Virus record (IMG/VR): IMGVR_UViG_3300022719_000152
Span: 74,639-138,638 of that record
Source of the DNA: a virus
Length of the DNA stretch: 64,000 nucleotides
Reading direction: 5' to 3' (one strand)
Both the position numbers and the translations under genes were made by a program. The notes below the pieces were generated by a model. That model had not been told where the DNA came from and did no database searches. It was given only the letters and a program-made list of their open reading frames with translations. Every line of letters begins with the position of its first letter. The first letter of the stretch is position 1. Shown one piece after another: positions 8,201 through 50,789 of this stretch.

Positions 8201-8613
8201 TTCGCATTCCAGACGGCGACAACGACTTCCCCGAATGCTCTGGAAGGATCTTTATTCTTGTGGTGGACGAAGGGGTGGGCATCAAGGAACGTCTTGTGTC
8301 CATAGGGCGGAACGGTCTTCCCCGTGAAGTCATCCATGGGGTAATGGCCATTGAACGTGAGGTGATTGTGGACGAGAGAGGATTCCGGGAAGACATCTCC
8401 GTTGACATTCTGCCCCCAATACTCTGAAGCGCCGAGAGCATTGACCAGAATGGGTATCTTGCCTTCAACTGGTTTGTACTCGCTGAGCCACTTTTGGACA
8501 TCGGGTAGCATGGTTCCTGCTACCTTCGTGATCTGGTCCCCGGGATGAAAGACTCGAGTGAGGGGCTCCCCTCCCTTCGAGACACCCTGGAATGTGGCTA
8601 GTTTAATAAGCAT
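5260..8613 (-). CDS. Prohead maturation protease polyprotein with internal inorganic pyrophosphatase (InPase-type) domain
   Basis: N-term NVNGDVF...FVHH...G...DVSMGC + CxxC...RFFDISFV-GAD protease-like domain; internal INVENAPGTYR..W..M...YG.....GTDGDPLDVYVGP...DEDKVMVGF PPase motif. Confidence 0.75.
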   Translation of the reverse strand: MLIKLATFQGVSKGGEPLTRVFHPGDQITKVAGTMLPDVQKWLSEYKPVEGKIPILVNALGASEYWGQNVNGDVFPESSLVHNHLTFNGHYPMDDFTGKTVPPYGHKTFLDAHPFVHHKNKDPSRAFGEVVVAVWNAKMRRVELVVILDRELASQHGAQHVVDKIDAGEYCDVSMGCKVPYDVCTCCGHKSRTTKDYCCCITQLGMGRILEDGRRVGVVNYHPRFFDISFVFIGADKTAKMMCKLASGVVVPQSVMDAELVYGISSNDDGVVKSSSMEKVAKAQGGEKRTYEVEGHPDVIKRIDVLLETMNRLGGWGSSRGLKLSIDGDGPEFLYVGGTKYKPNKEQLQRETEREDVNIGALTEPSQTSKNKMANVNLHTGAGVGGAYLAGDDVNRASDQEEFLSQRPDKKPDQVSFSNLDIPGDGKLLMSKEDPQTDRRLGDDVHGPLKTNDRMGRGTDDNEEYAPDHEPKTAGPDVVDLRHPEKYEPSSRLSEDYMVNPRERVSEQAKLGMTETDNIDVHSNPDENPKTVIKETERKIPVQSSMPDNVRKRPAEDANLAKLGASQRSKVMRFYTAKANLPKVWKDAKKIKIGPPPQPNRPDFPFVGTIKFRGLTINVENAPGTYRTGRGWQTKMHIPYGEFQKSEGTDGDPLDVYVGPYFDAPNVYIIHQNFVRGPNKGEHDEDKVMVGFKSIEQATNAYLAHYDKADYLRSVTTMTFDMFKKGLMKKQFHKEKVAFIDTQPGNVDLQLEDLFTSAQNQDARRRQRVWKNKGEDGKDHIRAEVTGSGMGSSEKAKQASAPRVPTAIDLLKMASDDKIASHLKWADIIKRVGPDKAVGRVAPALSESEPSLPPELLNEMGDCGLEGALATPTSMGMVLKPEEFQRIALAAMGKTDLADSLDNDSAVFKPVDGECAPCSPLSLDHSLEGLLDKLLPFLRDKSYFGPPLKRRIVRITIAAPAPRTPRKEVNSPLLSKVSAAYTWYRREQMKLAGDAAWAVPNNPKLHVALHGASLEDSFGKTASSGTVDPRTLAVVLGAIPITMMYSAHLQGKQRRGEEMGALRSFVAEHPWLTTMGVGAGLRELMKHPRSKELFDDLLVAGHKVWTGKGPPEVILPA

Positions 8614-11282: not shown

Positions 11283-11526
11283 ACTAGTCAGCCTCGAGGA
11301 GGCCATGGAGCTCCTCGGCAAAAGCCGGCGCACCATATTTCGTATGGCTCGCAGAGGTGAAGTCGTAAAAGTCACCATAAAGCACCGTACTTACTTCACA
11401 CTCTCCAGCATCAGCAACCACAAACCTCGAATTGGGCCACAAATTGCTCTACCCCCAGAAGACCCCAACCTCAAAGAGCTCCAACGCAAGGAGCTAGAGC
11501 GTCGGCATCCTGAAATCTACATCTGA
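11254..11526 (+). CDS. Excisionase/MerR-like helix-turn-helix DNA-binding protein
   Basis: LVSLEEAMELLGKSRRTIFRMARRGEV HTH_17-like motif. Confidence 0.75.
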   Translation: MGRIEKDGVTLVSLEEAMELLGKSRRTIFRMARRGEVVKVTIKHRTYFTLSSISNHKPRIGPQIALPPEDPNLKELQRKELERRHPEIYI

Positions 11527-14500
11527 TCGTCCCGGTCTGTGAGGTAATCCCTTTCGTCATTCCACTCTTCAGAGAAGGTGGCTGTATCTTGCGAGGGCAC
11601 CAGTACGTCAGGGCGCTGTTTGACAAAATATGAAGCCAAGAAGGCGTAGGTGCATGCGTGGAAAGTATCGTCCGGGTTCCCAGGCGCGTGCTTGTAGACG
11701 TTCATCCGGGTCCGCTCATTGTACTCAGAGTAGATGTTGAGGAAGTCCATGGCGTGAGGGTCGTCAAACTCCTCCCACCGAGGGTACCGGAACACGTTAC
11801 TACGCTTGATGGCGTTGAACATATCCGACATGACCTCAGAGCGGTGACAGAGGTAGCGCGGTACTGCTAGCCGAGGCTCATAGACAATCTTCTTCTTTTG
11901 GTTACCAACCCACTGGTATTTCTTGATCTTGTTGGCGCCGAACTCACGCATGAGCTTGTCGTTGGGCCAGAAACCACCACCGTAGTCCACTCCTACGAAC
12001 CGGACGTTGAAGTCACGAATGTGGTCCTTGATGATCTCTAGTTGTCGATCAGGCTCTGACTCTACACCGTCGAAGCGACGCATGTAGAAGTAGGTGAACT
12101 TATCCGGGGCAAAGGGCAGGTACCCGCCGAGTACCATGACCGTGTACGTCCCCTCTCCGGTATTGCCTTGATACCCAATGCAGCCGTTGCGCTCTGTGAC
12201 GATAAACCCAGTGGGCACCCTGCAGCAGTAGACTTTACCCTTGTAGAGCACCCGCTCGGCGCGGCTCGGGTCATTGAACACGACGTAGTCCCGGCCTGAA
12301 GACCAGCTCACACTCCAACGGTCCTTACGGTTGCCTTCGGCTTCCTTGTGCAGCTTCAACGTAGATCGCAGCCCAAGAAGGGTAGACAGTTCTTGGAAGT
12401 CCTCGCAGAGCTGCTTAGACGTCGAACTGTAGCTACCGTTGTCGCAGTTCTCTCGACCATCAACGGTGCCGTCCCCGAGCATCATGGCATCCCAGAGGAT
12501 CTTCAGTTGTCGCTGAGACAGCCGTAAGAACTCACGAGGAATACGCTTAGTTGCGCTACTACCGCCTACGTTCTGCTCAACCCAGTGCCAGAACTGCTTA
12601 TCCCAGATGGTCCAGTTGACGTCGCCAGTCTTTGGATTGGTAGACTCAGAGTACTCAATACCTAGCCGGTCCATGCAGTCTCGAATCTTGGCAGTAGTCC
12701 CTGGGTTCACAGTCTCTCGCTGGGACATCTTGAGGCACGAAGGTCGTTTCTCGCCATTCCCAGACCGACTAGGTACCCAACACAACCCGCCCTCCGATAG
12801 AAAGTAGCCCAGAAACTCTAGCCAGTCGTCCATGGCAAACGTCTGAGCTTCTGCGCCTGAGTATCCAGCAGAAGAGGGCAAGCCTGGCAGCTCAAAGGAC
12901 TCCTGCTCTTGTCCATCGAAGAAGGTCGTACCAACGAACTTCACCTGACCAGTACGCTCTACGAAATCCCCAGCCCGCTCAACCTTGAACTCCGAGCCGT
13001 TCTTTCCCTTGAACAGCATCCGATGGGTGTCCGTGAGCATCATATCGAGGCCCTTGGCCTTGAAATGCAGGAGCTCCCCATCCCAGTCCCTCACCGTGCG
13101 GACCATAGGCTTCACAAAGCTCATTTCTCGGGTGCGCTCATCGAACTGAGCCACCTGGTCATCGTCCGTCAGATCCTTGAAGTGGACAAAACCCCGCTGA
13201 GTAAGGATACGGGTCTGCTCGTCATGGCAGCCCCAGTCAACCCCCATGAAGACAGGGTACTGACTGGTCCATTTGATGACGTCTCGATAGTACGCCATCG
13301 ATAGCTGATTCCACGAGTTCTTCAGTAGATCAGCACGAGTGAGAGGCCTGGTGCCTGAGTCATAGCTGCGCCCAAGGACCTCGTTGTAGAACTTGGCACG
13401 AGAGTACTTGCGCTGCTTGTCGAGGATGTCCGCATGCTCAATCCAAGGAACCATGAGCTGCGGAATGCGATACCCCTCAAAAGGCTTCTCCACCTTCGGA
13501 TTGGGGTTTATAGAATTCCATCTAGCGTCTTCGTCCTTGGGGTCTATTGGTTTCCCACAACGGTCACAGATGAGAGACTTGTTCCCGATGTTGTCCTCAT
13601 CAAGGATGTTCCAATGCCAACTGCCTGAGTCCTTCGGAGTGCCATGGCGTTTGCAGGGGACAATCCACTCGTTCTGTGTGGAGAAGCGAGACCAGTAATG
13701 CTCAATGGCGTTGTCGAGTGATTTGGGCGTGCCAGCATAGGTGAACAGCTTGAAGGTAGAGTGTGAAGCACACTCCTCAATAACCGGCACGTTCTCCAAG
13801 AGGATGTCCTGGAACTCGTCGATGATGACCTTGTCAGCCGGGATACCACGGCACCGGTCAGCATTGAGAAACGCGAAGCGGAGTGTGATTTGAGAGAAGT
13901 TGACGAGCTTCTTTTCGAGCACGTTCGCCAGCATCTTGCTGGATGTGTACTTCCTCAGGACCGGGGAGACCTCCATCGGCTCCTTGATACGGTCACGACT
14001 GAAGACCTTGGTTTGCTGGTTGGAAGGCGAGACGTAGAGCGCACGAAAGAACGGGTTGAGTGCCGTGTAGGCTAGGCAGGTGTTGCCTAATAGCGTAGAG
14101 TTGTGCGTCACGAATCCATCAGCCACAAAGTTGTGATGTGGGGATACTTCAAAGTCCACGCAGTCCTGCTCACCGATATCTTTGATATCTACAATCGTGT
14201 CCCAATAGAGATCTGTGTCGAGGTGGGCCTCTAAGTGATCAACCATTTCCTGATTGAACCGTCTATCCATCCGAAAGAAATCAACGTAGAGCGCCAGCTT
14301 TTCTCGTGTCGGAGGATACTTCAAGCTTCTGCGCAGCCCGTATTCGTGCAGACTGTTATTGTCCCTATTCTCGTGCCAATCATCTTCTCCCCGAGAACCG
14401 AGTATATCTCCGATGAGGTTGTTGATCTCTTTCGGGTATGTGCCTCGATTGTTGTTACTACCAACTTCCGGAAGGGGAACATTCTCACTCTTTCCAAGCG

Positions 14501-15671
14501 CCCCTATATCCTGCAAGAACGTAGACACCCCCCCTACAGTCTCTACGCGAAGAATGTATGCCGTCTTCTCAATACCTCGCTTCTTCCAGTAATTGGGCCA
14601 ATTCTCTCTAATCCGGGTAGGTACTCCGAACTTCCACAAAAGAGCCTGCACCTGGCGAACAAGAGTATGAGACATAGAGCAATACTCGATTGAGTATTTC
14701 GAAGAGCTGTTCCGCTTAACATGACCATCAGTGGACCACAGGCGGTTCAAGAACAGGGCAGTATCCTCTCGGCCCAGATCAAACACCCATGAGGGTATAA
14801 ACTTTGTGTAGGAATTCGAGCCTACAAGGCCGTCTTCCTCCAACCAGTCACGAACAGAACCGTTCTCATGAAGACGAACATCCTTGGCAGTGGTACCGCT
14901 CTTTGGAGATACTCGTACAGTACCGCCTGCGTCGCATACGCACCGCAAGAAGTCGTTTAGCTGAGGGCCTGGGACTGACGTGAACGAGATATAACGTCCG
15001 ATATAACCATCCCCGATAAGGTAGGCTGTAAGAGCAATCCGCTCTTGGGAAGCACTCACAGCCGCAGTAAACTCTCCAGCTTTGCGAACTACAGCAAGGC
15101 GGTCACCTGCCTTCAAGTTGCCTGCTTCCGTCCAGGAACCCCAGGTTCTCATTGGATGAGTAGTCGCCACGGAGCATTCGTGCCCTTGCCGGGTTTTGAT
15201 CTTCACGCAAGGCTTGCGATAAACACGAGACTTCCAGGAGACCTCTCCTACTTCGATTTTGGAGCCGTCACGCTGTTCCATCGAAGTTAGACGATCCCCC
15301 TCGATTACGTCCTCAGCACGAACGAACGACCCGTTCTCTCGAGAGATGAGAGAGTCGAGAACGAGCGTCTTCTCAACCTGCCGGCCCGCCATGAGTAACC
15401 GACGCTTTGCTGGCGAGTTGTAGATGGTCTTGAGGTACCGGCGCTCGGAGAAATCGAATCTGTGCAGACCTCCGGAGACCGGCATGTAGACTGCGAACTC
15501 GATGAACTGCGAGGGCGTAGAGTACTGCCGGTCTGAGGTGAGAAACTTCTCGTCTACCTCTGCCTCATCCAAGTACCGGGCATCCTCCCCAAAGTGCTCG
15601 TTCTCCTCCTTGTCCTCCTTGTAGAGGAGGGGATTGATGGGTTTGATGTTTGGATTGGAGGGGGCAAGCAT
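11517..15671 (-). CDS. terL: Terminase large subunit with two inteins
   Basis: GRQVEK|S Walker A, RGIPAD..IIDEFQD Walker B, AGTPKS coupling motif, FYNEVLG, MGVDWG nuclease motif, C-terminal DDTFHA. Confidence 0.9.
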   Translation of the reverse strand: MLAPSNPNIKPINPLLYKEDKEENEHFGEDARYLDEAEVDEKFLTSDRQYSTPSQFIEFAVYMPVSGGLHRFDFSERRYLKTIYNSPAKRRLLMAGRQVEKTLVLDSLISRENGSFVRAEDVIEGDRLTSMEQRDGSKIEVGEVSWKSRVYRKPCVKIKTRQGHECSVATTHPMRTWGSWTEAGNLKAGDRLAVVRKAGEFTAAVSASQERIALTAYLIGDGYIGRYISFTSVPGPQLNDFLRCVCDAGGTVRVSPKSGTTAKDVRLHENGSVRDWLEEDGLVGSNSYTKFIPSWVFDLGREDTALFLNRLWSTDGHVKRNSSSKYSIEYCSMSHTLVRQVQALLWKFGVPTRIRENWPNYWKKRGIEKTAYILRVETVGGVSTFLQDIGALGKSENVPLPEVGSNNNRGTYPKEINNLIGDILGSRGEDDWHENRDNNSLHEYGLRRSLKYPPTREKLALYVDFFRMDRRFNQEMVDHLEAHLDTDLYWDTIVDIKDIGEQDCVDFEVSPHHNFVADGFVTHNSTLLGNTCLAYTALNPFFRALYVSPSNQQTKVFSRDRIKEPMEVSPVLRKYTSSKMLANVLEKKLVNFSQITLRFAFLNADRCRGIPADKVIIDEFQDILLENVPVIEECASHSTFKLFTYAGTPKSLDNAIEHYWSRFSTQNEWIVPCKRHGTPKDSGSWHWNILDEDNIGNKSLICDRCGKPIDPKDEDARWNSINPNPKVEKPFEGYRIPQLMVPWIEHADILDKQRKYSRAKFYNEVLGRSYDSGTRPLTRADLLKNSWNQLSMAYYRDVIKWTSQYPVFMGVDWGCHDEQTRILTQRGFVHFKDLTDDDQVAQFDERTREMSFVKPMVRTVRDWDGELLHFKAKGLDMMLTDTHRMLFKGKNGSEFKVERAGDFVERTGQVKFVGTTFFDGQEQESFELPGLPSSAGYSGAEAQTFAMDDWLEFLGYFLSEGGLCWVPSRSGNGEKRPSCLKMSQRETVNPGTTAKIRDCMDRLGIEYSESTNPKTGDVNWTIWDKQFWHWVEQNVGGSSATKRIPREFLRLSQRQLKILWDAMMLGDGTVDGRENCDNGSYSSTSKQLCEDFQELSTLLGLRSTLKLHKEAEGNRKDRWSVSWSSGRDYVVFNDPSRAERVLYKGKVYCCRVPTGFIVTERNGCIGYQGNTGEGTYTVMVLGGYLPFAPDKFTYFYMRRFDGVESEPDRQLEIIKDHIRDFNVRFVGVDYGGGFWPNDKLMREFGANKIKKYQWVGNQKKKIVYEPRLAVPRYLCHRSEVMSDMFNAIKRSNVFRYPRWEEFDDPHAMDFLNIYSEYNERTRMNVYKHAPGNPDDTFHACTYAFLASYFVKQRPDVLVPSQDTATFSEEWNDERDYLTDRDDQM
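12162..13229 (-). mobile_element. Intein 2 in TerL nuclease domain (356 aa, LAGLIDADG)
   Basis: GVDWG|CHDEQTRILT...TDTH...YFLSEG...MMLGDG...VYCCRVPTGFIVTERNG...QGN|T. Confidence 0.85.
14100..15368 (-). mobile_element. Intein 1 in TerL Walker A (423 aa, LAGLIDADG endonuclease), begins with Thr
   Basis: TLVLDSLI...THPM...YLIGDG...LWSTDG...HHNFVADGFVTHN|S; excision restores GRQVEKST. Confidence 0.85.
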
Positions 15672-16560: not shown

Positions 16561-16569
16561 GGTATAAGA
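16561..16569 (+). promoter_or_regulatory. GGTATAAGA candidate phage promoter
   Basis: Identical 9-mer at 17540 and 32312; ATG follows at 16575 with no SD. Confidence 0.55.
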
Positions 16570-17539: not shown

Positions 17540-17548
17540 GGTATAAGA
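17540..17548 (+). promoter_or_regulatory. GGTATAAGA candidate phage promoter
   Basis: Intergenic, upstream of 17595 gene with GGAGG SD. Confidence 0.55.
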
Positions 17549-23672: not shown

Positions 23673-24815
23673 TTACTTCGTGAACGACACGCTCGACAAT
23701 ATCGTAGACACCTTTTGCTTCAACACGGCTGCTGTGGGAGCCAACTTCGACCCGGTCTGTGGGTCCACAATAGCGTCTATTACCGTGATGATTTCCTTTA
23801 GCAAAGTGGCCAGATCGTTTCCCTTGGGAATAGGCTGGTTGGCTCCATTGCCAAGGTTGATTTTGGGTGAGTCTACTGTGGCTTGGGTGGCCGCTTTGAT
23901 CAGGGCATTCTTGCCGGCTTCTGCAGTCCAATCCCCCTGGGTGGCCTTCACGCTGACGTTTTGGTCGGCTTGGACGCTGTGGTTCCCCTTCTCGGCCACC
24001 TGGGAGATATCCCCCTCTTTGGCCGTATGGGTGATGCTGTCTTTGGCTGTCAGCGACCACGATTTCTCCAGGTTCCAGTTGACGTCGCCCTCGTTGGTGA
24101 CACTCATCTGAACCTTGACCGGAGCCCCATCCTCACTGGACTCGTTGATTTTCAACTCCAGTTTAGTGGGTTCACCATCCCCGTGGGAACCAATAGTCAG
24201 CTCAGCCACATGGGCTGGCTGATTGGCGACATCCTTGGCCTTGAGGGTGAGTTTGGTCGGGGAGGCCCCATCTGTAGTCTGATCGTCACGGTCTGTTGAC
24301 CAAGTTAGCTCCCCACCAAAGGTGAAAAGCTCCCAGTTCTCACAGAAGTTGCGGATCATATTGCGGATGGGAACATAGACAGTTTGGGCTATAGGGCCAG
24401 CCCCAATCTGAACCACCCCTCCTCGCCGAAGGATGACAAAGTTCTCGTCCCGGGTCCGCATCATCATGTCGCCGGGGTTGAGGTTGAGCCTGCCGGCGCG
24501 GAAACTGCCTCCCTCGAGCTGCTCATCGAAGGGGGCCTGGTACCCCAAGAGGAACGGAGCCGAGAACCTTCCAGAGCTTGGCCAGCACAACCAAGCCAAG
24601 GCGCCCACCTCCGGTACCGCATAGAAGCCTTCACCATTGGCAAAGTGAAAGTAGGGGTTCATCACTTGGATGTCGAAGAACCTCTTGTTGGCATACTCAC
24701 TGATGGCATCCACTGACCAGCCGTCAATATTCACATTGACGATGCGCACAGTCTCAACGTAGGCGGGGACGTACTCCCCTTCCATGACGCTGAATGGAGG
24801 TTGACCATGAGGCAT
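23673..24815 (-). CDS. Baseplate spike/gp5-VgrG-like protein
   Basis: Start revised to ATG 24815 (TAATG overlap with RNAP stop); GFYAVPEVG OB-fold motif, beta-repeat stretch, INLG..A..PI.KG C-terminus. Confidence 0.7.
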   Translation of the reverse strand: MPHGQPPFSVMEGEYVPAYVETVRIVNVNIDGWSVDAISEYANKRFFDIQVMNPYFHFANGEGFYAVPEVGALAWLCWPSSGRFSAPFLLGYQAPFDEQLEGGSFRAGRLNLNPGDMMMRTRDENFVILRRGGVVQIGAGPIAQTVYVPIRNMIRNFCENWELFTFGGELTWSTDRDDQTTDGASPTKLTLKAKDVANQPAHVAELTIGSHGDGEPTKLELKINESSEDGAPVKVQMSVTNEGDVNWNLEKSWSLTAKDSITHTAKEGDISQVAEKGNHSVQADQNVSVKATQGDWTAEAGKNALIKAATQATVDSPKINLGNGANQPIPKGNDLATLLKEIITVIDAIVDPQTGSKLAPTAAVLKQKVSTILSSVSFTK

Positions 24816-27800
24816 TAGTAAAGCCAGGGAGCTTCTTCGGTGCCTTTGCCGAATTCTTTGCCGTAAGCCATACCAGGTACGGGGTTGGTGCTGTGGAGCG
24901 CAGACCTCCAACCCTCCGCTGCAGCGTCAATGAGAGTACCCTTGAGCTTCTGGCTCTGCAGGCGAGCGATCCAGTCGGTCTGGAGCTCAAGTGGAAGTTG
25001 GTTCACCCCCTTGAGCATGGGTCGATAGACCACAGACTTCTTGCCCTTGGGGAGATTGCGGTTGAACTTGTTGATCTCGGAGGTGGGCATTCGATCACCG
25101 CGGATGACATCCTCGTGATCCCCAGGGTCTAGTACCTCACTGAGGTTGGTCATGGCTCGGACGAAGGTCTCTGTGTTGCGCCGGCGAATGGGGGCTACCG
25201 ACTCATACGTCCCCTGAATCTCGTCAGTCAGATACCGCTGCACGGAGTTAATGTTGGTGAGAGGGAGCATCTCCATTGGGTTCTTGGGGCCACTGGAGAT
25301 AGCATCCCCGCGCCTGACCAGGTCACCTTTTTTTACCTTGAGCTTACGGCTCCCGGGGACGTAGTGGCGCTGCCCATGGATGTAAACACTCCAGCCACCA
25401 GCCTCGTCCTTCTTGACCTGCTCAATCTTTCCCTCTGCCTGAGCCAGAGTAGCTGAACCAGGTAGTTTCTTCGGAACATTGAGGAGCTGCTCCAACCTGG
25501 TGAAGACGTTAATAGCATCAGTACCTTTGGCGCCCACTACACCTCCGGTGTTGTGACTGAGCAATCCGCCAACATAAAGCGTACCTGACTCAGTAGTTAG
25601 GTCGTAGACATAAGGCTCATCGTACAAGATCTCCCGGTTCAGAGTGAGGAGAACATGCTTTTCAATTGAAGGCGGCCCTGAGGTAAGAGATTTCTTCTCA
25701 ATCTGAGTCACTTTGATTGAATCTTCCAAAAGCGCACAAGCCAAAGGAGTCATACGCAATCGGACTTTGAAGCCTTGCTTCCTGGTTATCTCTCCGATGG
25801 TAGTAGCAACAATAGAGGAATCGATACCAAGCCTGATCGCTACAAAAGCAACTTGCTGTGCTAATTCAAAACTGGTGGTATCAATCCCAATAGTATCTGG
25901 GCCATCTTTGTGGCGCTCCACTGTCCCATCACCATCAATGATCCCAGCCAGACATCTTCTTAACCAATCCAAATCAAACTGGATGAATCTCGGGGGCAGA
26001 GATTTCTTGTGAGCATAACGCCCAAAAAGGGAATGGAATTTCGCCCCCAACGCAAGACTGTTTACAATGACTCTCTTTGTATAGACCCTAGGGCCGTGCC
26101 CACTAGCTTCTAGAGCAAGTACCAGCTTGTCTTTAATAGGTCCGTCGTTCTGAGCAAAATCTAGAGCATAAGGTTTCTTTTCCTGCATTCGAGCGTGCGA
26201 TCTCTTGAAAGTCACGCATCCTTCAGCCAGGAACATCCCCACTACCCAAGGGTCTTCTCCTATGTATTTCTCAGCAATATCGTTTGTACACTCATGAGAA
26301 ATTACCGGTTTGAGGTTCTTGTGTAAGAAGAATCTCTTAGGGTCCAACTCTGTCGGGGGCAAATATCCTACTTGTCCCACAGGCTTTCGCTCCTGAAACC
26401 GTTGAGCCTTTTTACATGATGGACAAACGGCCCTAGTGCCATTCTTCTTCAACCTATGATAACCGCAAGACTCACACTGCACTGCATTCTGCCACACCGC
26501 TACAGGGTGATTGTCTTGACAAATGGTGACCAAGCCGCCACCGCTAAGCATTCTCATGGGCCTAGAAGGTGCATGCCTACGAACATGAGTTACAGGCACC
26601 CACCCTTCTTTAGATAGAGTTTCTATGTTCGCGCCGCTCAAGTCTTTGATTTCTTCGTCACCTTCAACTTCAACATCCACCTGCATGGATTCAAAAAAGT
26701 CCTCCATGGTGACGGCGTAGGGCTCGCCCTCTAATCTTCGGACAAAGACTAAGCTGTCTGAGTGGTTACAGTGGAAAGCGTTCATTGAAAGCTGAGTAGC
26801 TGGTTCCCCCAAAGCATGGGCGGCCATAACGCCTACGTTGGTGCCCGGGTTGTGAATCTCACCATTCTCGTTGAGACCATAGCACTTCCCACACATACCG
26901 TCGCCGTGCTCGCACTTCAAAGGAGAGCGCACGCGCACCTCGGAGACCTTGTTGTTTCTGAGTCGATTGACGACATCCGGGGTAATGAGAGTGCCAGCCG
27001 GGATTGTACCCTTTTCCTTTCCACCCTTGGTCCCTAGCTTGATTGCCCGAGAGGTGTAGCGGTCAAGGATGTCCCGATTATCCACCGGCAGGATAATGCC
27101 TTTCGACGTGCCGCAGTCTTCGTCTACCACCATCTGGTTCATCGTAGTTTGGATGAGTTGCTTGGACATGAGGCCCGGTCGCCATGTACCTTCGACGCGC
27201 CCAATGGTGCCCATACGGGCACCGTGCATAGAAGCCCAATAGGAACCGATATCCAGCCCTTCAGAGTAACTCTTGTTGATAGGTACCGGTACCGGCTTAC
27301 CGCTGGAGTCTGCCACCAATACGGGGGCCAGGGTCATCTGCTTGAAGTTGTCCCACTTACCTCTGGCTCCTGACTTGATCCAATCGTACATCCTATTGTC
27401 AGTCTTCTTGTCCATTCGCTTCTTGCCCTCTTTGTCGAGGGTGGCAGAGACCTTGGAGTAGAGGTTCACAATCTTCTCGGCTTTTTTGTCAGAAGACGCA
27501 CGAGAGTTTCGTATCTTGGTCTCCTCCTTTGCCGCTGCAGCCATGAGAGAGTCACGAAACCGTGAGTCCGACTCAAAATCTTTGAGACTGATGGATAGTC
27601 CCGTAGAATGCTCATTACCAATGTCCTTGAGGCGATCGGCTGCCCAACCAAAGTCACCCGTGCTGTCCTTAGCAATGCGGGTCAAGAGATCGTTCAAGCT
27701 CTTTTTGTTTAGATTGAACGCTGGGTCATAGAGAATTCTCTCGTCTCGCACCTTTTCTGGTAGCGAGTGGTAGACCATCAATCGACCCATCGTTGTCTTG

Positions 27801-30800
27801 TTCTTCTTGGGCGCGCCTTCCTTCAGCAGAGACAATGGGTCCTTGTTGATGTCAGACAGGTCGATGACCTCATTGAGGTCGATCTCTTTGTTCTTCGTGG
27901 CCTTCACTGCGTCTAAGAGATTGTCGAATTTCTTCCCTTTGTCTTTACCCATTTCGGTAAGCTTGTAGAGACCGAGCATAGCCTCCTGCTCTGGCTTGAA
28001 CATGAGTGAGCCGGTAGAGGGGCTAAAAAGGTTATGCGACGGGACCATCTTGGAGGCTTCGCGCACCGCCGAGGGGCTTACTGGGACGAAGGCAGCCATC
28101 TTGTCACCATCGAAGTCAGCGTTGTACCCAGACGTAGCCAATGGATGGATCTTGATGGCCTTCCCGTCAGTTAGGCGCGGCTTGAACGCTTGGACTCCAA
28201 ACTTGTGCAGAACTGGGTCACGTTTCAGCAGTAGAGGCCTCTCATTCACAACCTTCTCTAGGTGCTTATCGGAAGCGATAGTGCTTTCCTTCACTTCCTT
28301 CTGGGCCTGTAGGGGTCGGTACCCTGAACGCACCATGCTCTGTACGACGAAAGGCTTGTAGAGTTCACGAGCTGCTTTATGAGGTATGCCCACCTCGTCG
28401 AGGGAGAGCGACGGCTCTGGAACAATAGTGCTGCGCATGGAGAGGTCTTGCCGACGACCAATTATCTTGCTCTGGAAGAATCCTTCCTTGGGGCTGGCAC
28501 CTGCGATGAGACCGGCGATTCCCTTGAGCTGCTTACCGTGGGAGGTGACTCCAGACATGGTCAGCGACTTGAGTCCGTCGTACATCGTGGACTCCAGCTT
28601 CGTCTTCTCCTCCGGAGGAAGGGCAGGATCGAACGTTTTGATTTGGTCGTTGGTCGCGCCCACCAACTGATAGATGCGGTTGAGGTCGTCGAGGTTCAAC
28701 TGGCCATCATCACGCACCATCACCGGCCGCATGGTCGGAGGCAGCACCGGCAAGTGTCGCATGGTGTACGCCTCGGTGGGCTTCATGCCGGCACGCTTGA
28801 GGGCGTTCAGGTACTTGAGTTTCTTGTTGGCGTCGTTCAGCTTGTTCGTTCGTAGCTTAGGTATCTCGGCCTGGATATTCTTCATCTCTCCATCGATATC
28901 GATTTGCTTCAGCTTGGAGATGATGGCTTCCGGGCCGGTCTTACCGTCCAACTCCTCTTTGCCATTGATGATTGCAGAGAACTGCTTCTTCTTCAGACCC
29001 AACAGAGATTGGACAGGAGTCTCAAACACGGGGTTTGGCATTCGAGATTCGAGCTTGATGTGCGACCACTTGCCGCCGAGATGACCCTCGGGCCACTTGG
29101 TCCCCGTAACATCCGGGTCAAAGATACCGCCCTTCTCTGGCTTGAGCTTACTACCTTGCAGAGCTCGAGAGGGCCGCTTGAGCTCGCCGTTGGACATGGC
29201 CAAGGTCTTCTTGTCCGTAAGCGGGGCCAAGAAGAGGTCGTTACCGTCCTTCTGAACGTCTAGACCCATGCCCTTGAGGTACCCCTCAAATTTCTTCCAC
29301 ACGAATGGGATCTTTGGGGTGGGTATTGAGGAGCCGGACTGAAGCTGCACCCAGAACTCATCGTTTTTATCCGATTTATAGCTTTGCATCTCACGAACAT
29401 TCTCTCGAGCATTGTGAGCAAGCATAGCGTAGAGACCCATAGCGTCCATCGTCTGAGCACCGTGAGGGCCTCCCTTCCTAGGGGCCATGTTGGAATCGTA
29501 GGCGTGACGAGAACGAACAGAGAGGCCCTTCTCAGCAGTGTGATGAAGTTTGTAGATATACTGATCTCCAGTCAGTACCTTACCCAAAGACTTATTGGTG
29601 TTCGGGTCAAACAGCTCCTCTGTGTCACTGATACCTGCCTTCTTCAACTCGTCTTGAAGATCACGGGTGTAGTCCTTCTTAGAGGGGTCGAAGTTGTTGA
29701 CGACGTAGGGCTTACCCTTCTTATCGGAAATCTTGGATGCTGCTGTCTCAAGAACCTGCCCCAGATTGATACGAGTGGGGACTCCAGTTGGGTTGAGTAG
29801 CACCTGGACTGCATTTCCATCCTTGTCCTTAGGCATCTCATGGTCAGGGAGAATGTTGGTGATGATACCTTTGTTGCCGTGCCGGCCAACAATTTTGTCT
29901 CCTATATCCGCAGGAGCATCGGCCTTGATGTACACGGTGGTCTTCTTGCCATGCTTGACGACGCGGGTGACGGTACCGGGAGCGTCCTTCTCCCACCGAG
30001 TATCCCGGGCGCGCATGGGATTGAGACGCTTCTTTGAGAACAGGCCCAGCATCTGTTGCTCTGGAGTGACGAGCTCCTTGCGCAGAGCTCCTATGATGAC
30101 GTCGCCAGGCTCTACACGCTGGCCCTCCATGATTACTGCGTTGTCATCAAGCTTATCTGCTTGCTCTCTGGTGACCTGGCCCGCTGTCTGGGCGAGGAAC
30201 TTCTTCTTGTTGAGGACGGTATTCTTGTCAGCTTGCACGTTGTTGCGAAACATATGCTCAGACGTGAGCTTCTTCGCTGCCGAATCGGAGATGACGATGC
30301 CATCCTCGAAGTTGTACCCCTGATAAGGCATGTAGGCGACCCGGAGGTTGGTGCCCAGGGCCAGCGTACCATCCTTGGTGAAGTTGGTGTCCGCAACCGG
30401 CTGGCCGGCTTTGACCTGGTCACCTTTTTTGACGATAGGAGTTGAATTGATGACACTCTTGTCATCATTCAGTGGGAAGTCGTCGTAGAGTTGTACCTCA
30501 TGTCGTTTCCCATCGTCTCCGCGGATGACCACACCATCTTTCTTGATCTTCTCTACCTTGCCAGCGACAGGAGACATGTGTGAAACGAATGAGCCGACGA
30601 GCTGCTCCCAAGTGGCTGGGGTATCAGAGCGGACCTGGACCTTAGGCTGCTCTCTGTCCTTGAGAGCGACGGCTTGCTCAATCTGCTTGGCGGCCACCAT
30701 GGTTCGATTGCCCTGGTTGTTCTGCAAGAAGGGGATCATGTTGGCGCTGAGGTCAAACATGCCCTTGGAGGACTTCAGAACGTAGTCCACGTCAGAGGGC

Positions 30801-32209
30801 TTGGACAGTATGGTCGTACCCTCCTTATCCGAGATCTTCACCAGTCGGCCCACCGGCTTCATCTCACCATTCTTCATCTCATACTGATCTGGGTACGCGA
30901 CATTGGACGTGAGCGCAGTGGCCGGATCAATCCACTCGGTCTTCTTGGTCTTGGTGTTGTAAGCACGGACCTTGAGATCTTTCCCCCTCTTCTCAGCACC
31001 CAAGGAGAGCTGCAGCGTCGTACCAATCTTAGCCGACTCTGGGGTCTGGATGGGATCAAGGAACCCCATGTGGCTTGGGTTGATGAGCTTGGCCGCGTCC
31101 GTCACCTGGTGAATTGAGCCGATACCTCCCTCGCCCAACACAGTCGTTCGACGGTTCCCTGATATGTAGCTCATGGGGTTCATCTGGTCTGGCTGGCTGG
31201 AGAGGTTGGAGGAAGAGAAGAAGCTACGTATGGGCTTGCCAAATTGCTCTGGGTTGATGATCTCCTTGACCTTGGTCTTCTTGTCCACGTTGTTGGAGAT
31301 TTTGCGGCGCACGTTCCACTTGTCGTTGCGCTCGAAACGATCCACCAGCAAGTCCTCGGCAGACATCAGATCCTTGAACCGGAGAGAGTCCCTATCGTCA
31401 GTCTTTTCTTCCTGTCGAGATACACGTAGGATCTTGTGCGAGCCGTCGAGGAGAGCGCTCCCGGTGACCTTGTCATAAGGAGTTCCCAATGTGACTTTTG
31501 TAGAATCTGGACGCAGCACAGTGCGCTCCATCTCCTCCTTGATCTTCTCCCGGGCCTCTTCCATTGACTCTGGGTTCTCACCCGTCATCGACTTGTAGAA
31601 CTTCTTCAACGCTACGTCGTGCTTCTCCTTCTGGTTGGCAGAGAGAATCTCTTTGCCCCAGCGCCGCTCTATCGTGTCGTCGTCAACCCCCATCTCTTTG
31701 AGAATCGGGTACAGGGCAATGTTTGCATTCTTACCCTGATGCTTCATCGTCATCTTCTTGGTCTTGGGGTCGAAGTTCATTTCGAACCCAAGACCCTTGG
31801 CAAGGTTCCACTGAGATGCAATGTCGCCGTTGTCCTTCACTCGGGTGTAGACGCCAGACTTCAACCGGAACTGGTTGTTCACCTGGTACTCGTTGCCGTT
31901 GACAATGTAGGTGTATCGATTGGTGACCTTGGGGAGTTGGGCGACAGTAACGGCTTGGCGGTCTTTCACCTTGCCTGTTTTGTTGTCCACGAGCTCTACT
32001 TCGGCTCGGACAGGCACTGACCAGGTCTGGTCTTTAAGCTTGGCCTGCTTTTGGCTCCGGATATCGTCGATATCCTTGTTGTCATCCACCCAGACCTTGT
32101 TCACCTGAAGGGTGTTCTTCTTACCCTCTATAGGAAACTGGTCTTTGACGACCATGGATACTCGATCTTTGAGTGTGCTGAATGCGTCTTGTGGTTCCCA
32201 GTGTGCCAT
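24815..32209 (-). CDS. Single-polypeptide DNA-directed RNA polymerase (fused beta + beta') with intein
   Basis: beta motifs TPES, GYNFEDGI, GDKIVGRHGNKG, KLHH; beta' motifs LPVLPPTMRP, KRDPVLH, YNADFDGD, GEPATQLSMNAFH/TGG. Confidence 0.95.
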   Translation of the reverse strand: MAHWEPQDAFSTLKDRVSMVVKDQFPIEGKKNTLQVNKVWVDDNKDIDDIRSQKQAKLKDQTWSVPVRAEVELVDNKTGKVKDRQAVTVAQLPKVTNRYTYIVNGNEYQVNNQFRLKSGVYTRVKDNGDIASQWNLAKGLGFEMNFDPKTKKMTMKHQGKNANIALYPILKEMGVDDDTIERRWGKEILSANQKEKHDVALKKFYKSMTGENPESMEEAREKIKEEMERTVLRPDSTKVTLGTPYDKVTGSALLDGSHKILRVSRQEEKTDDRDSLRFKDLMSAEDLLVDRFERNDKWNVRRKISNNVDKKTKVKEIINPEQFGKPIRSFFSSSNLSSQPDQMNPMSYISGNRRTTVLGEGGIGSIHQVTDAAKLINPSHMGFLDPIQTPESAKIGTTLQLSLGAEKRGKDLKVRAYNTKTKKTEWIDPATALTSNVAYPDQYEMKNGEMKPVGRLVKISDKEGTTILSKPSDVDYVLKSSKGMFDLSANMIPFLQNNQGNRTMVAAKQIEQAVALKDREQPKVQVRSDTPATWEQLVGSFVSHMSPVAGKVEKIKKDGVVIRGDDGKRHEVQLYDDFPLNDDKSVINSTPIVKKGDQVKAGQPVADTNFTKDGTLALGTNLRVAYMPYQGYNFEDGIVISDSAAKKLTSEHMFRNNVQADKNTVLNKKKFLAQTAGQVTREQADKLDDNAVIMEGQRVEPGDVIIGALRKELVTPEQQMLGLFSKKRLNPMRARDTRWEKDAPGTVTRVVKHGKKTTVYIKADAPADIGDKIVGRHGNKGIITNILPDHEMPKDKDGNAVQVLLNPTGVPTRINLGQVLETAASKISDKKGKPYVVNNFDPSKKDYTRDLQDELKKAGISDTEELFDPNTNKSLGKVLTGDQYIYKLHHTAEKGLSVRSRHAYDSNMAPRKGGPHGAQTMDAMGLYAMLAHNARENVREMQSYKSDKNDEFWVQLQSGSSIPTPKIPFVWKKFEGYLKGMGLDVQKDGNDLFLAPLTDKKTLAMSNGELKRPSRALQGSKLKPEKGGIFDPDVTGTKWPEGHLGGKWSHIKLESRMPNPVFETPVQSLLGLKKKQFSAIINGKEELDGKTGPEAIISKLKQIDIDGEMKNIQAEIPKLRTNKLNDANKKLKYLNALKRAGMKPTEAYTMRHLPVLPPTMRPVMVRDDGQLNLDDLNRIYQLVGATNDQIKTFDPALPPEEKTKLESTMYDGLKSLTMSGVTSHGKQLKGIAGLIAGASPKEGFFQSKIIGRRQDLSMRSTIVPEPSLSLDEVGIPHKAARELYKPFVVQSMVRSGYRPLQAQKEVKESTIASDKHLEKVVNERPLLLKRDPVLHKFGVQAFKPRLTDGKAIKIHPLATSGYNADFDGDKMAAFVPVSPSAVREASKMVPSHNLFSPSTGSLMFKPEQEAMLGLYKLTEMGKDKGKKFDNLLDAVKATKNKEIDLNEVIDLSDINKDPLSLLKEGAPKKNKTTMGRLMVYHSLPEKVRDERILYDPAFNLNKKSLNDLLTRIAKDSTGDFGWAADRLKDIGNEHSTGLSISLKDFESDSRFRDSLMAAAAKEETKIRNSRASSDKKAEKIVNLYSKVSATLDKEGKKRMDKKTDNRMYDWIKSGARGKWDNFKQMTLAPVLVADSSGKPVPVPINKSYSEGLDIGSYWASMHGARMGTIGRVEGTWRPGLMSKQLIQTTMNQMVVDEDCGTSKGIILPVDNRDILDRYTSRAIKLGTKGGKEKGTIPAGTLITPDVVNRLRNNKVSEVRVRSPLKCEHGDGMCGKCYGLNENGEIHNPGTNVGVMAAHALGEPATQLSMNAFHCNHSDSLVFVRRLEGEPYAVTMEDFFESMQVDVEVEGDEEIKDLSGANIETLSKEGWVPVTHVRRHAPSRPMRMLSGGGLVTICQDNHPVAVWQNAVQCESCGYHRLKKNGTRAVCPSCKKAQRFQERKPVGQVGYLPPTELDPKRFFLHKNLKPVISHECTNDIAEKYIGEDPWVVGMFLAEGCVTFKRSHARMQEKKPYALDFAQNDGPIKDKLVLALEASGHGPRVYTKRVIVNSLALGAKFHSLFGRYAHKKSLPPRFIQFDLDWLRRCLAGIIDGDGTVERHKDGPDTIGIDTTSFELAQQVAFVAIRLGIDSSIVATTIGEITRKQGFKVRLRMTPLACALLEDSIKVTQIEKKSLTSGPPSIEKHVLLTLNREILYDEPYVYDLTTESGTLYVGGLLSHNTGGVVGAKGTDAINVFTRLEQLLNVPKKLPGSATLAQAEGKIEQVKKDEAGGWSVYIHGQRHYVPGSRKLKVKKGDLVRRGDAISSGPKNPMEMLPLTNINSVQRYLTDEIQGTYESVAPIRRRNTETFVRAMTNLSEVLDPGDHEDVIRGDRMPTSEINKFNRNLPKGKKSVVYRPMLKGVNQLPLELQTDWIARLQSQKLKGTLIDAAAEGWRSALHSTNPVPGMAYGKEFGKGTEEAPWLY
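25550..26770 (-). mobile_element. Intein in RNAP trigger loop (407 aa, LAGLIDADG, Zn-ribbon-like insert)
   Basis: AFH|CNHSDSLV...MFLAEG...LAGIIDGDG...VYDLTT...SHN|TGG; visibly AT-richer than flanks. Confidence 0.9.
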
Positions 32210-32311
32210 TCTCGCCTTCCGTGCCTAGTCGCTGGCGATGCTTGTCGCCTCAAAGCCCAGAGGATTCAAAGGGTTGCCCAATAGTACCTCGGAAACCCCA
32301 AGTAGCAAATG

Positions 32312-32320
32312 GGTATAAGA
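32312..32320 (+). promoter_or_regulatory. GGTATAAGA candidate phage promoter
   Basis: Start of plus-strand island, divergent from RNAP gene. Confidence 0.55.
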
Positions 32321-33288: not shown

Positions 33289-33321
33289 GAGGGGCCGGCG
33301 CCGGCCCCTCATTTTTTAGCC
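33289..33321 (+). terminator. Palindromic terminator at end of plus-strand island
   Basis: GAGGGGCCGGC/GCCGGCCCCTC then ATTTTTTAGCC. Confidence 0.75.
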
Positions 33322-33410: not shown

Positions 33411-35477
33411 TCAGATCATGGTGGCTTCAGGGCCGCGCTGAGGGGGTCGCTGCTCAGGCAGCGGCATGGCAGCAGAGTTCTGCTGAGCCCCTGTAGCAGA
33501 TTGCATGATGGGTAGGATGAGTTGGTAGAGCTGTGGGTTCTTCTGGCGAATGCTTACGAGCTCTGCTTGGCGCTGGTCGTCGGGAAGTTGGTTCAGCCAT
33601 GCAACAACCTTCTGTGCGATCACCATGACGTCGTAGCCTGCGCCGGCCTGCTCTCCACCCACAGGAGATTGAGATCCCTCCATCCCTGGAGGAGCTGAAG
33701 CGCCTTGCTCTTGAGCTGCTGCTTGCTCGGCCGCGGGGTCCATTGGGGCTGCGGGTGGGATCTCCATGCCTGGGACCTGACCGGCAGCGTTCATCATGCC
33801 AGTCTCTTGGTTGATCATCTGGCCTACTGCAGCCGGGCTGGCCTGTCCAGGTATACCAGCGGTGGGCATAGGCTCTGTGGCCGGCATACCCATAGCTGCA
33901 GCATCGGGAGTCTGCTCCATCATCATCTTCTGGCCGCGGAGCTGGTACTTCGCCATGACCATTTGGCTCTCGCCCTGGATGCGAGCCTGCGCTAGAGCTT
34001 GCCGACGCTGACCTTCGAGGATGTACTTGCGCTCCTCCTCGATACGGTCTTGTTCCTTCCTCGAATCCCAGTTGGTGTCCTCGAGCAGAGAGTTGTCCGA
34101 GATCTTGCCAGCCTGATTGAGCTGAAGATTGAATGCGGCCCGCTGCAGATCATCAGCCAGCTTGAACGGCTTGTAGCGAACGTTGACTGGAGCCCAGCCC
34201 ATGAACGAGGCGATCTGGGGGATGACAAAGTCGAGGACCATAGTCTTTCGCTGACTGCGCTGGTCTTCAAAGTGGTTCTCCAAGATACGCATGGAGACGT
34301 TAGACCCGGAGTACTGCATCCCTCCGAATACAAACTCGATGGGCACTCCCATACCGGCAACGATGTGCTCCGACCACTGACGGTACTCTTGGGCCAGCAT
34401 GAGAGCTCGACCGTCACCACCCAGAGACTCCTGACCCACGGGGAGTGGGAGGATTGGGATGTAGTTGTTGTCGAGCCGCCAGCGGATGATCTCTTGTTCG
34501 ATCTTGTCTCGCCACTGGGTCATGTTGATGGTCGTGTAGACGTCGGAGGTGCCACTGGCTGACTGTGGGAAGAGGATGCGCAGGGGCACAATGTGTTCGA
34601 TGGCGATAGCTTCCTGCGCCTTGCGCAGAATCTGCAGGTAGAAAGTGTCCTTCAATACCGGCAAGACCATCGGCAGGCCCCAACCCTTGTCCTTCTGAGC
34701 AATGGTTGGGCGCTGCAGGTGGTAAATGTTGTTCTTGTTGAACAGCACCGCCTTGTTCTTGCGGAGCGCTTCAATGAAGACCTGCGGAATGTTCTCTATG
34801 ATGTGGCGCTTCGACATACGCACGTCGTTCGCCATCGAGGGGGGTATGGTGTAGTAGTACCGACTTTCCCCCGTTGCTTCATTGTGTTGGACCGTGATGT
34901 TCTCTGGGTTCCAACGGATGAGTCGAATGTCTCTCACCGAGCGGATATAGAGATCCTGGACAATGAACTCTCCGTAGTGCCCACAGCGGCTGCAGTTACC
35001 GATGAACTGGTACTCACGAAAGATGTATTTCTGGCGTTGAACCTTCTCGTAGTGACCGCAGCTCTTGCACTTGAGGTGCTTGATGAAGGGAAAATAGACG
35101 GAGATGAATGAGTTGCCGTAGACGTTGTAGTCGAGCCCTGCTTCAATCTCGAACTGCTTGTAGTTGAGCACCCTCTTGAATAGGTAGTCCCACTTCTTTC
35201 GGAGCTCTTCGCTCCCCTCATCCACGATCATATCGGTGACCGGGTACTCTGCCATCTTGTAGCAAGTGGCGTTGATGAGGGGGTTAGTGAGGAAGTAGTA
35301 CCGGCACCACCGAAGCATCGTTTTGTACGATGTCGGTAGATAGGTGTGAGCAATATCGAAGAACGGGGAGGGGTACCGAATCGCACCTAGAGCCTCACCA
35401 GTGATGGACCGACCACTGTTGCGAGCGAATCGAAACCCACCAGAGGGGCCGAAATTGAGTGCGTCTATCTGAGCCAT
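33411..35477 (-). CDS. Portal protein (putative)
   Basis: 688 aa; NPLIN..., DYNVYGNSFIS, IRWNPENI, IYHL...GWGLP, IVAGMGVPIEFVFGG portal-like layout; Zn-finger insert; low-complexity tail. Confidence 0.7.
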   Translation of the reverse strand: MAQIDALNFGPSGGFRFARNSGRSITGEALGAIRYPSPFFDIAHTYLPTSYKTMLRWCRYYFLTNPLINATCYKMAEYPVTDMIVDEGSEELRKKWDYLFKRVLNYKQFEIEAGLDYNVYGNSFISVYFPFIKHLKCKSCGHYEKVQRQKYIFREYQFIGNCSRCGHYGEFIVQDLYIRSVRDIRLIRWNPENITVQHNEATGESRYYYTIPPSMANDVRMSKRHIIENIPQVFIEALRKNKAVLFNKNNIYHLQRPTIAQKDKGWGLPMVLPVLKDTFYLQILRKAQEAIAIEHIVPLRILFPQSASGTSDVYTTINMTQWRDKIEQEIIRWRLDNNYIPILPLPVGQESLGGDGRALMLAQEYRQWSEHIVAGMGVPIEFVFGGMQYSGSNVSMRILENHFEDQRSQRKTMVLDFVIPQIASFMGWAPVNVRYKPFKLADDLQRAAFNLQLNQAGKISDNSLLEDTNWDSRKEQDRIEEERKYILEGQRRQALAQARIQGESQMVMAKYQLRGQKMMMEQTPDAAAMGMPATEPMPTAGIPGQASPAAVGQMINQETGMMNAAGQVPGMEIPPAAPMDPAAEQAAAQEQGASAPPGMEGSQSPVGGEQAGAGYDVMVIAQKVVAWLNQLPDDQRQAELVSIRQKNPQLYQLILPIMQSATGAQQNSAAMPLPEQRPPQRGPEATMI

Positions 35478-38484: not shown

Positions 38485-38514
38485 TTGGGACCTCCGGGCG
38501 AAAGTACCTACCAC

Positions 38515-38594
38515 ACCCTACTATATCAAGGTGAAATTCCTGAGAATCGTTGGGAATAAGGGTCATGAAACGTAACCCCAAAGGAGGTTAGATA
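38515..38594. promoter_or_regulatory. Main divergent promoter region (virion operon vs replication operon)
   Basis: Minus-strand TGaTATAGT extended -10 (~38520-38528); plus-strand GGAATAAG at 38553; GTAACCCCA at 38572. Confidence 0.55.
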
Positions 38595-50500: not shown

Positions 50501-50789
50501 AGCAATCAACACTCCCATCCAAGGCTCTGCATCAGACCTCATCAAGGGTGCGATGCTTCGTATCGAGTTCAACGATGAGCTCAACCGCTTGGGAGTGGAA
50601 CTGGTGAACCAGGTCCATGACGAGCTCGTCATGGAAGTTCCAGAAGAGAATGCAGAAGCGGCGTCTCCTATCGTGAAAGCGTGCATGGAGACGCCCTTTG
50701 AAGACGAGGACGGGGAACCATGGAATCCTCTGTGTGTACCCATCCCAGTAGATCTGAAGGTCGTTGACGTATGGGCATCGGCTAAATGA
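47586..50789 (+). CDS. polA: Family A DNA polymerase with 3'-5' exonuclease and intein
   Basis: FDTET, FNLKYD, YASYDA; TGRFS; ADYEQLEMR; KAVGFGIIYG; QVHDEL. Confidence 0.95.
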   Translation: MTFNPNVPDPEYIGTDKEAAELLRLLMRKVEEEPDDFMGFDTETYGKKLPIKGRNLDWVTDKVTLWSLSCTLENEYRRWCIPGQYFQFFSPLLENPLLNVAGFNLKYDAHISWNCRVNIWNCRTLIDGLALIKLIDENRMASDLKTTAEEYCGLRMTKYKSLFKGVIDPKTGKEAKEYETSLLDLIEAGHIDKVSNYASYDAFAHLRLFERLRDILRITPIGTDGDNMWEYFLRMEMHVTEVLWRMERRGMCLDLGYLQDLIPEIDGKIKEAERDVNRIASTVINVNSPAQLADLFFSNNELKGGGQGFGLQPIKLTKSRAASTDKDVMAALTELGGEAGEVARLVVAIRTLSKTKNTYMENLRKLAEYFPDGRIHPSFNQFGAATGRFSTNNPNCVDGETEVLTTQGWVRFDKLEAWEDEPDMVAPLVAQWVPKTGTIEFVQAGLIEQHYTGEMVHVENQHIDLLMTPNHRCPLINRQTGELQVLEAKDYKEDKKQLHAGHWFRSAEDTPLSSSISYSQLTFLIAVQADGHWHGGGIDFGFNKKRKADRLLATLENIGANFSYKEGGSAEYRFRVKAGDLVEWAKDLLGEDKIFWDWITMLSSDQLKFFSEEVFFWDGCWDRKSMYASKYKKNADWVQIALTLCGKRAKVRKYETPEGRADSWQVDVTGRDYSMTTNIKRSRRSWDGTVYCVSVPSGFFVVRRNGKACITGNSQNFPRPDNDEWGIRKAFIAPPGKKLIVADYEQLEMRIMADRSRDKAMIQAILDGKDLHSFTAASMTPGVKYEEVVAAKKTNEPDPAQKMLKLLRQDMKAVGFGIIYGAGPKKIGESIEILEEDIRQRLASMDSSKLKRRVSSKMRGNPLLTEEEAIVKVARESIAGDKIQSYFKVFPGVKAYMEDIPAWCRESMYVDLDGNDLEWHFFEHEDWPGSVEMTVFGHVRPFGYVQTLVGRYRRLEDIDHDKFMLRSAAERQAINTPIQGSASDLIKGAMLRIEFNDELNRLGVELVNQVHDELVMEVPEENAEAASPIVKACMETPFEDEDGEPWNPLCVPIPVDLKVVDVWASAK
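48771..49724 (+). mobile_element. Intein in PolA (318 aa, LAGLIDADG-like)
   Basis: NPN|CVDGETEVLT...TPNH...VQADG...FFWDG...VYCVSVPSGFFVVRRNG..TGN|SQNFP. Confidence 0.9.

Follow-up and report, generated by a model that had tools for sequence, protein, structure and literature searches.

Within a 64,000-nucleotide stretch of virus record IMGVR_UViG_3300022719_000152 (positions 74,639 to 138,638; hereafter the window), which forms the right-hand part of a linear phage contig of 138.6 kb estimated to be 70% complete, we found a gene (24815-32209, minus strand) whose sequence specifies a two-barrel RNA polymerase of bacterial type, beta and beta' being joined in one chain. On the same grounds it belongs with the polymerases of the type found in Salmonella phage Arash and Vibrio phage D69, and the fused single chain is a family-wide trait. 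We think it probable, though well short of certain, that this polymerase is packaged with a phage sigma factor and would transcribe the early and replication genes after injection. As a bacterial-like transcription enzyme it may be unusually simple; the surprise is limited in that virion polymerases and single-chain phage polymerases are already known in principle.

The gene is a single open frame of 2464 residues, or 2057 once a 407-residue intein is removed, and its first ATG agrees with the N-termini of homologues. Pfam matches run along the one chain as Rpb2_3, Rpb2_6 and then Rpb1_1/2/3/5 with a LAGLIDADG match, and hhalign passed from E. coli beta residues 38-1342 directly to beta' from about residue 18 with no break. 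The beta-like part comprises residues 1-990 (29240-32209; features of this gene are all on the minus strand), and at the junction (29213-29293) KFEGYLKGMGLDV stands at residue 973 (nucleotide 29293) and LAPLTD at residue 994 (nucleotide 29230). Profile alignment to E. coli covered nearly all of beta (26% identity) and beta' (30%). An AlphaFold2 model of residues 615-1810, made from an alignment of 55 rows, had a pLDDT (predicted local distance difference test) of 85.5 and a pTM (predicted template modeling score) of 0.73; it placed two confident strands at the junction, forming a beta-hairpin, and contained just two low-confidence segments (residues 1456-1468 and 1663-1676). The top 50 Foldseek matches of the model in the PDB were all bacterial RNA polymerase chains. 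An initial annotation, made from the DNA alone, had described a seamless beta-beta' fusion of 2057 residues after splicing, and the Pfam order, the hhalign run-through and the intein bounds agree on this, as does the structure prediction it had proposed as a check. A frameshift or assembly artefact was rejected as the origin of the fusion on the evidence of the homologues, the relatives' loci and a Logan contig (possibly of the same source as the window DNA) that spans the frame with zero differences.

The hallmarks of a two-barrel enzyme are present, namely the beta' NADFDGD motif (28103-28123), the catalytic lysines of beta and a bacterial-like fold; equivalents of K1065, K1073, D814, R1106 and H1237 are kept in the beta-like part, and 19 of 26 bacterial-invariant residues are kept at catalytic positions. 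By profile alignment the flap, clamp helices, lid, jaw, switch 2 and second zinc site are retained along with NADFDGD, and the E. coli insertions SI1 and SI2 (both in beta) and SI3 are lost. The annotation had also noted that the beta' N-terminal zinc finger is deleted while the second site is kept, and that the bridge helix and trigger loop are diverged; all of this holds. At the site of the missing zinc-binding domain (29051-29143) none of the 80 parsed members has a Cys, whereas 87 of 90 retain the second site, whose four Cys are kept here (26882-27115). Aligned to E. coli, the C-terminal half of the bridge helix and the trigger loop are diverged; the latter starts as QLSMNAFH (26771-26794), with the catalytic His kept and R933 replaced by Asn. 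Directly after this His lies the intein (residues 1814-2220; 25550-26770), which carries a LAGLIDADG endonuclease, begins with Cys, ends in His-Asn with Thr at +1, interrupts a conserved site and is found at the identical position in 8 of 105 parsed homologues. Three positions of the beta part that we take to belong to the rifampicin pocket are altered (Q513S, H526G, S531T).

Protein homologues were taken as the best 120 of 1635 matches, a total that may include cellular subunits and was not used as a family size; each of the 120 is at least 49% identical over the searched region, and 90 are 2020-2110 residues long. Among the 80 best IMG/VR loci, 75 had all four domain blocks in one frame, five were cut by a contig end and none was split. 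A search of 50,697 phage records found four that match over 80% of the query: Arash (OQ632216) and the Vibrio phages D69, D148 and D181, which share with the window phage the clade and the fused junction (gp206 in Arash), and with its relatives a sigma family. Arash and D69 show 31-34% polymerase identity to the window phage with homologous portal and capsid, and Arash uses the same promoter word. Arash gp206, labelled beta, already crosses the beta/beta' joint, and gp216 is the remaining beta'; the excerpts of the Arash paper name gp206 'beta' and do not mention a fusion (PMC10585845). Arash and D69 thus split beta' into two genes at a place where the window protein has a loop with a Lys-x-Ala word instead. 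By NCBIfam match ranges, the Arash split site lies about 40 residues before the cyanobacterial rpoC1/rpoC2 boundary. In the literature searched, which held few subscription papers, neither the fused family nor the sigma or promoter that goes with it was found described.

In a beta-core tree, 27 family rows plus Arash and D69 formed one clade (SH-aLRT, the Shimodaira-Hasegawa-like approximate likelihood ratio test, 100) that excluded 23 bacteria (99) as well as YerA41, Carin-5 and a split viral enzyme. This is the phylogeny that the annotation had asked for. A beta' tree, from which a motif filter had removed 6 of 53 rows including Arash and D69, again made the family monophyletic (100), with the bacteria grouped at only 72. 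Both trees are quick ones with a bacterial sample biased to Patescibacteria. In three Patescibacteria loci (L096, L098 and L105; two from Adlerbacteria and one labelled Saccharibacteria) rpoB and rpoC share a single frame. Since a fused Patescibacteria sequence nests inside the bacteria, away from the phage clade, the phage fusion looks independent. One family member (L076; CBDHHL010000046.1, 162 kb) sits in a Leptolyngbyaceae genome bin and is probably a mis-binned phage, possibly a hint of the host. Viral contigs L024/L025 (7305-14419) and L026 (8858-12964) carry separate, highly divergent polymerase subunits and lie outside the fused family.

Fusions of rpoB and rpoC that we take to occur naturally in Helicobacter and Wolbachia have the same order and joint as the window chain. 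The best NCBIfam match of the window protein is to a fused model (the bacterial fusions being PRK09603 and PRK14844), yet at 561 bits against a cut-off of 5372, and the window chain is about 2050 residues long against about 2900 and has lost the zinc finger. The cultured phages YerA41, Carin-5 and Rhizobium phage RHph_TM30 likewise have cellular-like subunits, and YerA41 carries polymerase and sigma in its particles (PMC7354516), but in these phages the subunits are separate genes in replication regions, and they fall outside the fused clade in both trees. The mReC Caudovirales are tailed phages whose polymerases are also matched by cellular beta and beta' profiles and branch outside bacteria (PMC7481178); beta and beta' are nonetheless separate genes in 43 of 43 phage rows of one part of a table there, with capsids of PF07068 and terminases of PF03237, whereas the window gene is fused, its terminase matches PF05876 and its capsid matches no Pfam family. 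Membership in mReC was considered and is not supported, given the fused gene layout. Genome profile searches with PF07068 and PF03420 gave zero matches, as did their controls.

The phiKZ and AR9 enzymes resemble the window polymerase in being two-barrel and lacking an alpha gene, and their virion form reads a short conserved early promoter (PMC7598289, PMC13282480); they differ in having four to five chains in two sets and no recognizable sigma, where the window enzyme is one chain with a recognizable sigma70-family partner. The crAss-like gp66, YonO and P23-45 gp64/gp96 also hold both barrels in one polypeptide, with virion forms known, but they can barely be aligned to cellular subunits, whereas the window enzyme aligns nearly throughout. 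By analogy, the enzyme likely works as the phiKZ or P23-45 virion polymerase does while being a member of neither family.

The proposed partner is encoded by relatives of the window phage as a 250-residue sigma70-family protein (100 homologues), homologous to Arash gp10, whose profile matches RpoS best (E 4e-11) and FliA weakly. One such gene is present in each of the 13 genomes at least 90% complete and in 18 of 20 overall, the two genomes without it being 70-71% complete. Within the 50,697 phage records the sigma family has four matches, identical to the four phages that match the polymerase. No sigma gene was found on the window or its contig with Pfam Sigma70_r2, the Arash and D69 sigmas or a family sigma profile. 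The annotation's remark that neither sigma nor alpha is in the window is therefore correct for the contig, but the missing sigma is due to truncation: the contig is about 70% complete, and in all three relatives mapped (G001, G002, G003) the sigma locus falls, on the structural strand, in the segment that the contig lacks. A second sigma exists in Arash (gp196; L001, 10477-11514) and in D69 (L002, 4813-5589); gp196 has a sigma70-type site upstream and does not appear in the Arash particle table, and a search of three close relatives yielded no second sigma of this type.

That polymerase and sigma travel in the particle is suggested by the homologues in Arash particles, by the Lys-x-Ala loop at the Arash split and by back-to-back promoter pairs. 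In the Arash particle proteome gp206 ranks top in spectra (3516; 128 unique peptides), and gp216 (40 unique peptides) and sigma gp10 (24) are present, with gp196 unlisted (Table 2 of PMC10585845). Per residue, the spectra amount to 2.3 for gp206 and 2.0 each for gp216 and gp10, next to 1.5 for the portal and 4.3 for the capsid. The window chain carries an inserted low-confidence loop (residues 1452-1472; 27794-27856, minus) with a hydrophobic-x-Lys-x-Ala-type word, positioned exactly between the end of Arash gp206 (residue 1451) and the start of gp216 (residue 1473). When loops were counted by alignment in 119 homologues (one of 120 was dropped), the insertion was present in 73 and the loop was short in 46; hydrophobic-x-Lys-x-[Ala/Gly/Ser] occurred in 72 of the 73 long loops and in none of the short ones, against 21% of random windows. 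The Lys-x-Ala word is also in 85 of 90 parsed sigma leaders (control, 26%), and in the window phage it occurs 3.3 times per 1000 residues of structural-strand proteins, compared with 0.7 for the others and 1.7 for replication proteins. Head proteases that cut after a short motif are known, e.g., AXE in SPN3US (PMC10052503), and the loop is likely a head-protease site. A candidate prohead protease domain, a lead only, is formed by the N-terminal 260 residues of ORF 5260-8613 (7834-8613, minus; Peptidase_S77-like, score 0.91), and the Lys-x-Ala word follows this protease-like domain.

Two classes of promoter-like site lie upstream of the polymerase gene. The phage-type word GGTATAAG has three copies in the window versus 0.6 expected, those at 16561-16568 and 17540-17547 (plus) each standing ahead of a non-structural gene, and 30 of its 31 copies in Arash are on the non-structural strand. 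Over five genomes GG[GT]ATAAG counted 93 sites on the non-structural strand versus 24 on the other, and an AAA peak at -19 to -17 precedes it in four uncultured genomes, though not clearly in Arash. In the regions ahead of 65 polymerase genes, which are related in sequence, the ATAAG core was antisense in 61 and sense in two, and the best sigma70 score averaged 7.7 in the sense direction, 6.0 in shuffles and 4.9 antisense. In the window a sigma70-type site (TTGCTA, 16 nucleotides, TACTAT; 32281-32308, minus) faces the polymerase gene and overlaps a phage-type site facing away (CGGAAA, 16 nucleotides, GGTATAAG; 32290-32319, plus). Similarly, the sigma70-type site that leads the portal operon (38501-38529, minus) stands back to back with one of phage type (variant GGAATAAG) that leads the replication operon (38531-38560, plus); at the head of the portal operon 10 of 11 relatives have the phage-type core and four of 11 a strict sigma70 pattern, and the window has both. 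Such pairs, overlapping or back to back, thus occupy both structural/non-structural divergence points (32281-32319 and 38501-38560), and the sigma70-type class is distinct at just these two. We infer from the sequences that both classes act as promoters, and the paired sites are possibly an early/late switch. No genome-wide late promoter was found; de novo 7-mers yielded only the phage word and terminator tails. The annotation had proposed a packaged polymerase reading GGTATAAG promoters, for which the Arash particles, the structural-protein motif and the placement of the word on the non-structural strand speak indirectly.

The course of events we favor would begin with the intein splicing out, which would restore the trigger loop. 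A weak sigma70-type promoter would drive the polymerase gene together with the spike and the structural genes after it, probably through the host holoenzyme, which would read the structural operons; in P23-45 the host polymerase reads the late genes after the virion polymerase (PMC10770324). Polymerase and sigma would then be packaged into the head, and in this subclade a head protease would probably cut the Lys-x-Ala loop, giving two pieces that match Arash gp206 and gp216. The injected holoenzyme would read (C)GAAA-N15/16-GG[GT]ATAAG promoters via sigma regions 4 and 2, and, least certain of these steps, the covalent beta-beta' joint would probably aid assembly without alpha. The broadest version, that a widespread lineage has a two-gene holoenzyme (an alpha-free chain and a co-evolved sigma) that is capsid-loaded, loop-cleaved in a subclade and switched against the host enzyme between early and late programmes by paired promoters, we put forward tentatively and consider doubtful as a whole.

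Several observations weigh against packaging and the proposed division of labor. Primase, ligase and helicases are among the 116 proteins of the Arash proteome, and the authors of that study consider carry-over from the cell possible (PMC10585845). The Lys-x-Ala word is not needed for the enzyme, since the loop is missing from 46 of 119 polymerases and Arash gp10 is without a Lys-x-Ala leader, and the counts are not independent because the sequences are related. In D69, GG[GT]ATAAG is not enriched (15 versus 16 in the control), and G017 and G018 contain few copies. Away from the two divergence points the sigma70-type class is weak: it marks 15 of 224 gene heads on the structural strand versus 9 of 262, scores at about shuffle level at capsid and terminase genes and is sub-threshold in a standard promoter scan. 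Ahead of the polymerase gene such a site could also fire early, and the late expression proposed in the annotation is a conjecture. In YerA41 the polymerase subunits are particle-associated yet expressed early (PMC7354516).

The strongest alternative is a T7-like cascade in which the polymerase is not a virion enzyme: the host sigma70 holoenzyme would read its gene at once, and the new enzyme with the phage sigma would then read the GG[GT]ATAAG genes. The sigma70-type site lies directly ahead of the polymerase gene across the family, the Arash proteome is noisy and the YerA41 polymerase genes are early, all as such a cascade would have it. However, the portal operon is headed by the same class of site, and the spike and structural genes that follow the polymerase would come on before replication; in Arash particles the homologues rank with the most abundant proteins, and a structural-protein word is found in both the enzyme and the sigma leader. 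We consider this cascade fairly unlikely.

An enzyme packaged or made as we propose might instead borrow the host alpha dimer (and omega) for activity. Its sequence and fold are much nearer to bacterial beta and beta' than those of phiKZ-type enzymes, and of the 10 bacterial-invariant residues at presumed alpha contacts four are kept, about the background rate over few invariant positions. E. coli beta G1215 and R1216 contact alpha R45 (PMC13202282), but their equivalents are changed in the polymerase family, with Pro in about 90% of members; jumbo-phage enzymes function without alpha (PMC7598289), and the hosts differ across the family. Neither in the window nor on its contig did an alpha gene turn up, and genome searches gave none with PF01000 in 20 or with PF01193 in five, and one weak C-terminal match to TIGR02027 in one of five (controls positive in 14 of 14). 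Activity without alpha, as the annotation suggested, is one possible reading; dependence on host alpha seems to us improbable, more so than the cascade. To our knowledge no cellular RNA polymerase does without an alpha-type assembly platform, and the alpha-free phage enzymes we know of are fragmented and too divergent for residue-by-residue comparison with E. coli. Because this family aligns nearly fully, has no alpha gene and has a recognizable sigma, it permits a direct test of the need for alpha and the beta' zinc finger, which the cultured relatives Arash and D69 make feasible now. A polymerase of two genes that is programmable by sigma, probably insensitive to rifampicin and equipped with a promoter of its own would also be a candidate for orthogonal expression.

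The sigma factor might also redirect the host core to the GG[GT]ATAAG promoters in the manner of T4 gp55, leaving the phage polymerase to serve other genes. It is recognizably of the sigma70 family, and Group 2 jumbo phages have a sigma without a polymerase (PMC7824862). Here, on the other hand, sigma and polymerase strictly co-occur, both are in Arash particles at similar levels, and the faces that would bind each other have moved away from bacteria: the clamp helices keep two of 17 bacterial-invariant residues and the flap tip one of 11, against 65 of 144 and 78 of 193 overall, and sigma region 2 departs from the bacterial pattern. The divergence of the sigma faces fits a co-evolved partner and speaks against host sigma70, leaving redirection of the host core very improbable. 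Least credible of all is the annotation's idea that the chain may recognize promoters without any sigma, which drew on the lack of a sigma gene in the window contig, since a sigma70-family gene is in all 13 near-complete relatives and maps to the contig's missing part, the promoter has two spaced elements, and the flap tip and clamp helices are retained.

The polymerase gene heads a structural operon of its own. Its stop overlaps the start of a baseplate spike-like gene (23673-24815, minus; 380 residues) resembling Phage_base_V spikes. The annotated TAATG coupling to this gene is real, and the neighbor is spike-like, but the overlap occurs in two of 10 relatives, the others having gaps of 9-20 nucleotides, and we rejected it as a family trait. 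Two antisense ORFs lie between the polymerase and the portal gene (33411-35477, minus; 32% to Arash gp204) and end at a terminator-like hairpin (33289-33320, plus). In the three genomes examined for this (Arash, G000 and G002), as at 33289-33320 in the window, a T-run and then AG often close the terminator-like hairpins, which may reflect how the phage enzyme terminates. ORF 5260-8613 (minus) is a head-module protein of 1117 residues that contains an inorganic pyrophosphatase domain in its interior and Lys-x-Ala words near residues 245 and 1020. The terminase (11517-15671, minus) is lambda gpA-like, matches PF05876 and carries an intein. A family A DNA polymerase of 1067 residues (47586-50789, plus) matches Pfam in three stretches and may hold an insertion. 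In Arash, an AT-rich repeat at least 60 bases long occurs five times (plus strand; 26698, 66445, 100201, 138548 and 173322), at intervals of about 35-40 kb around the genome, and possibly marks replication origins.

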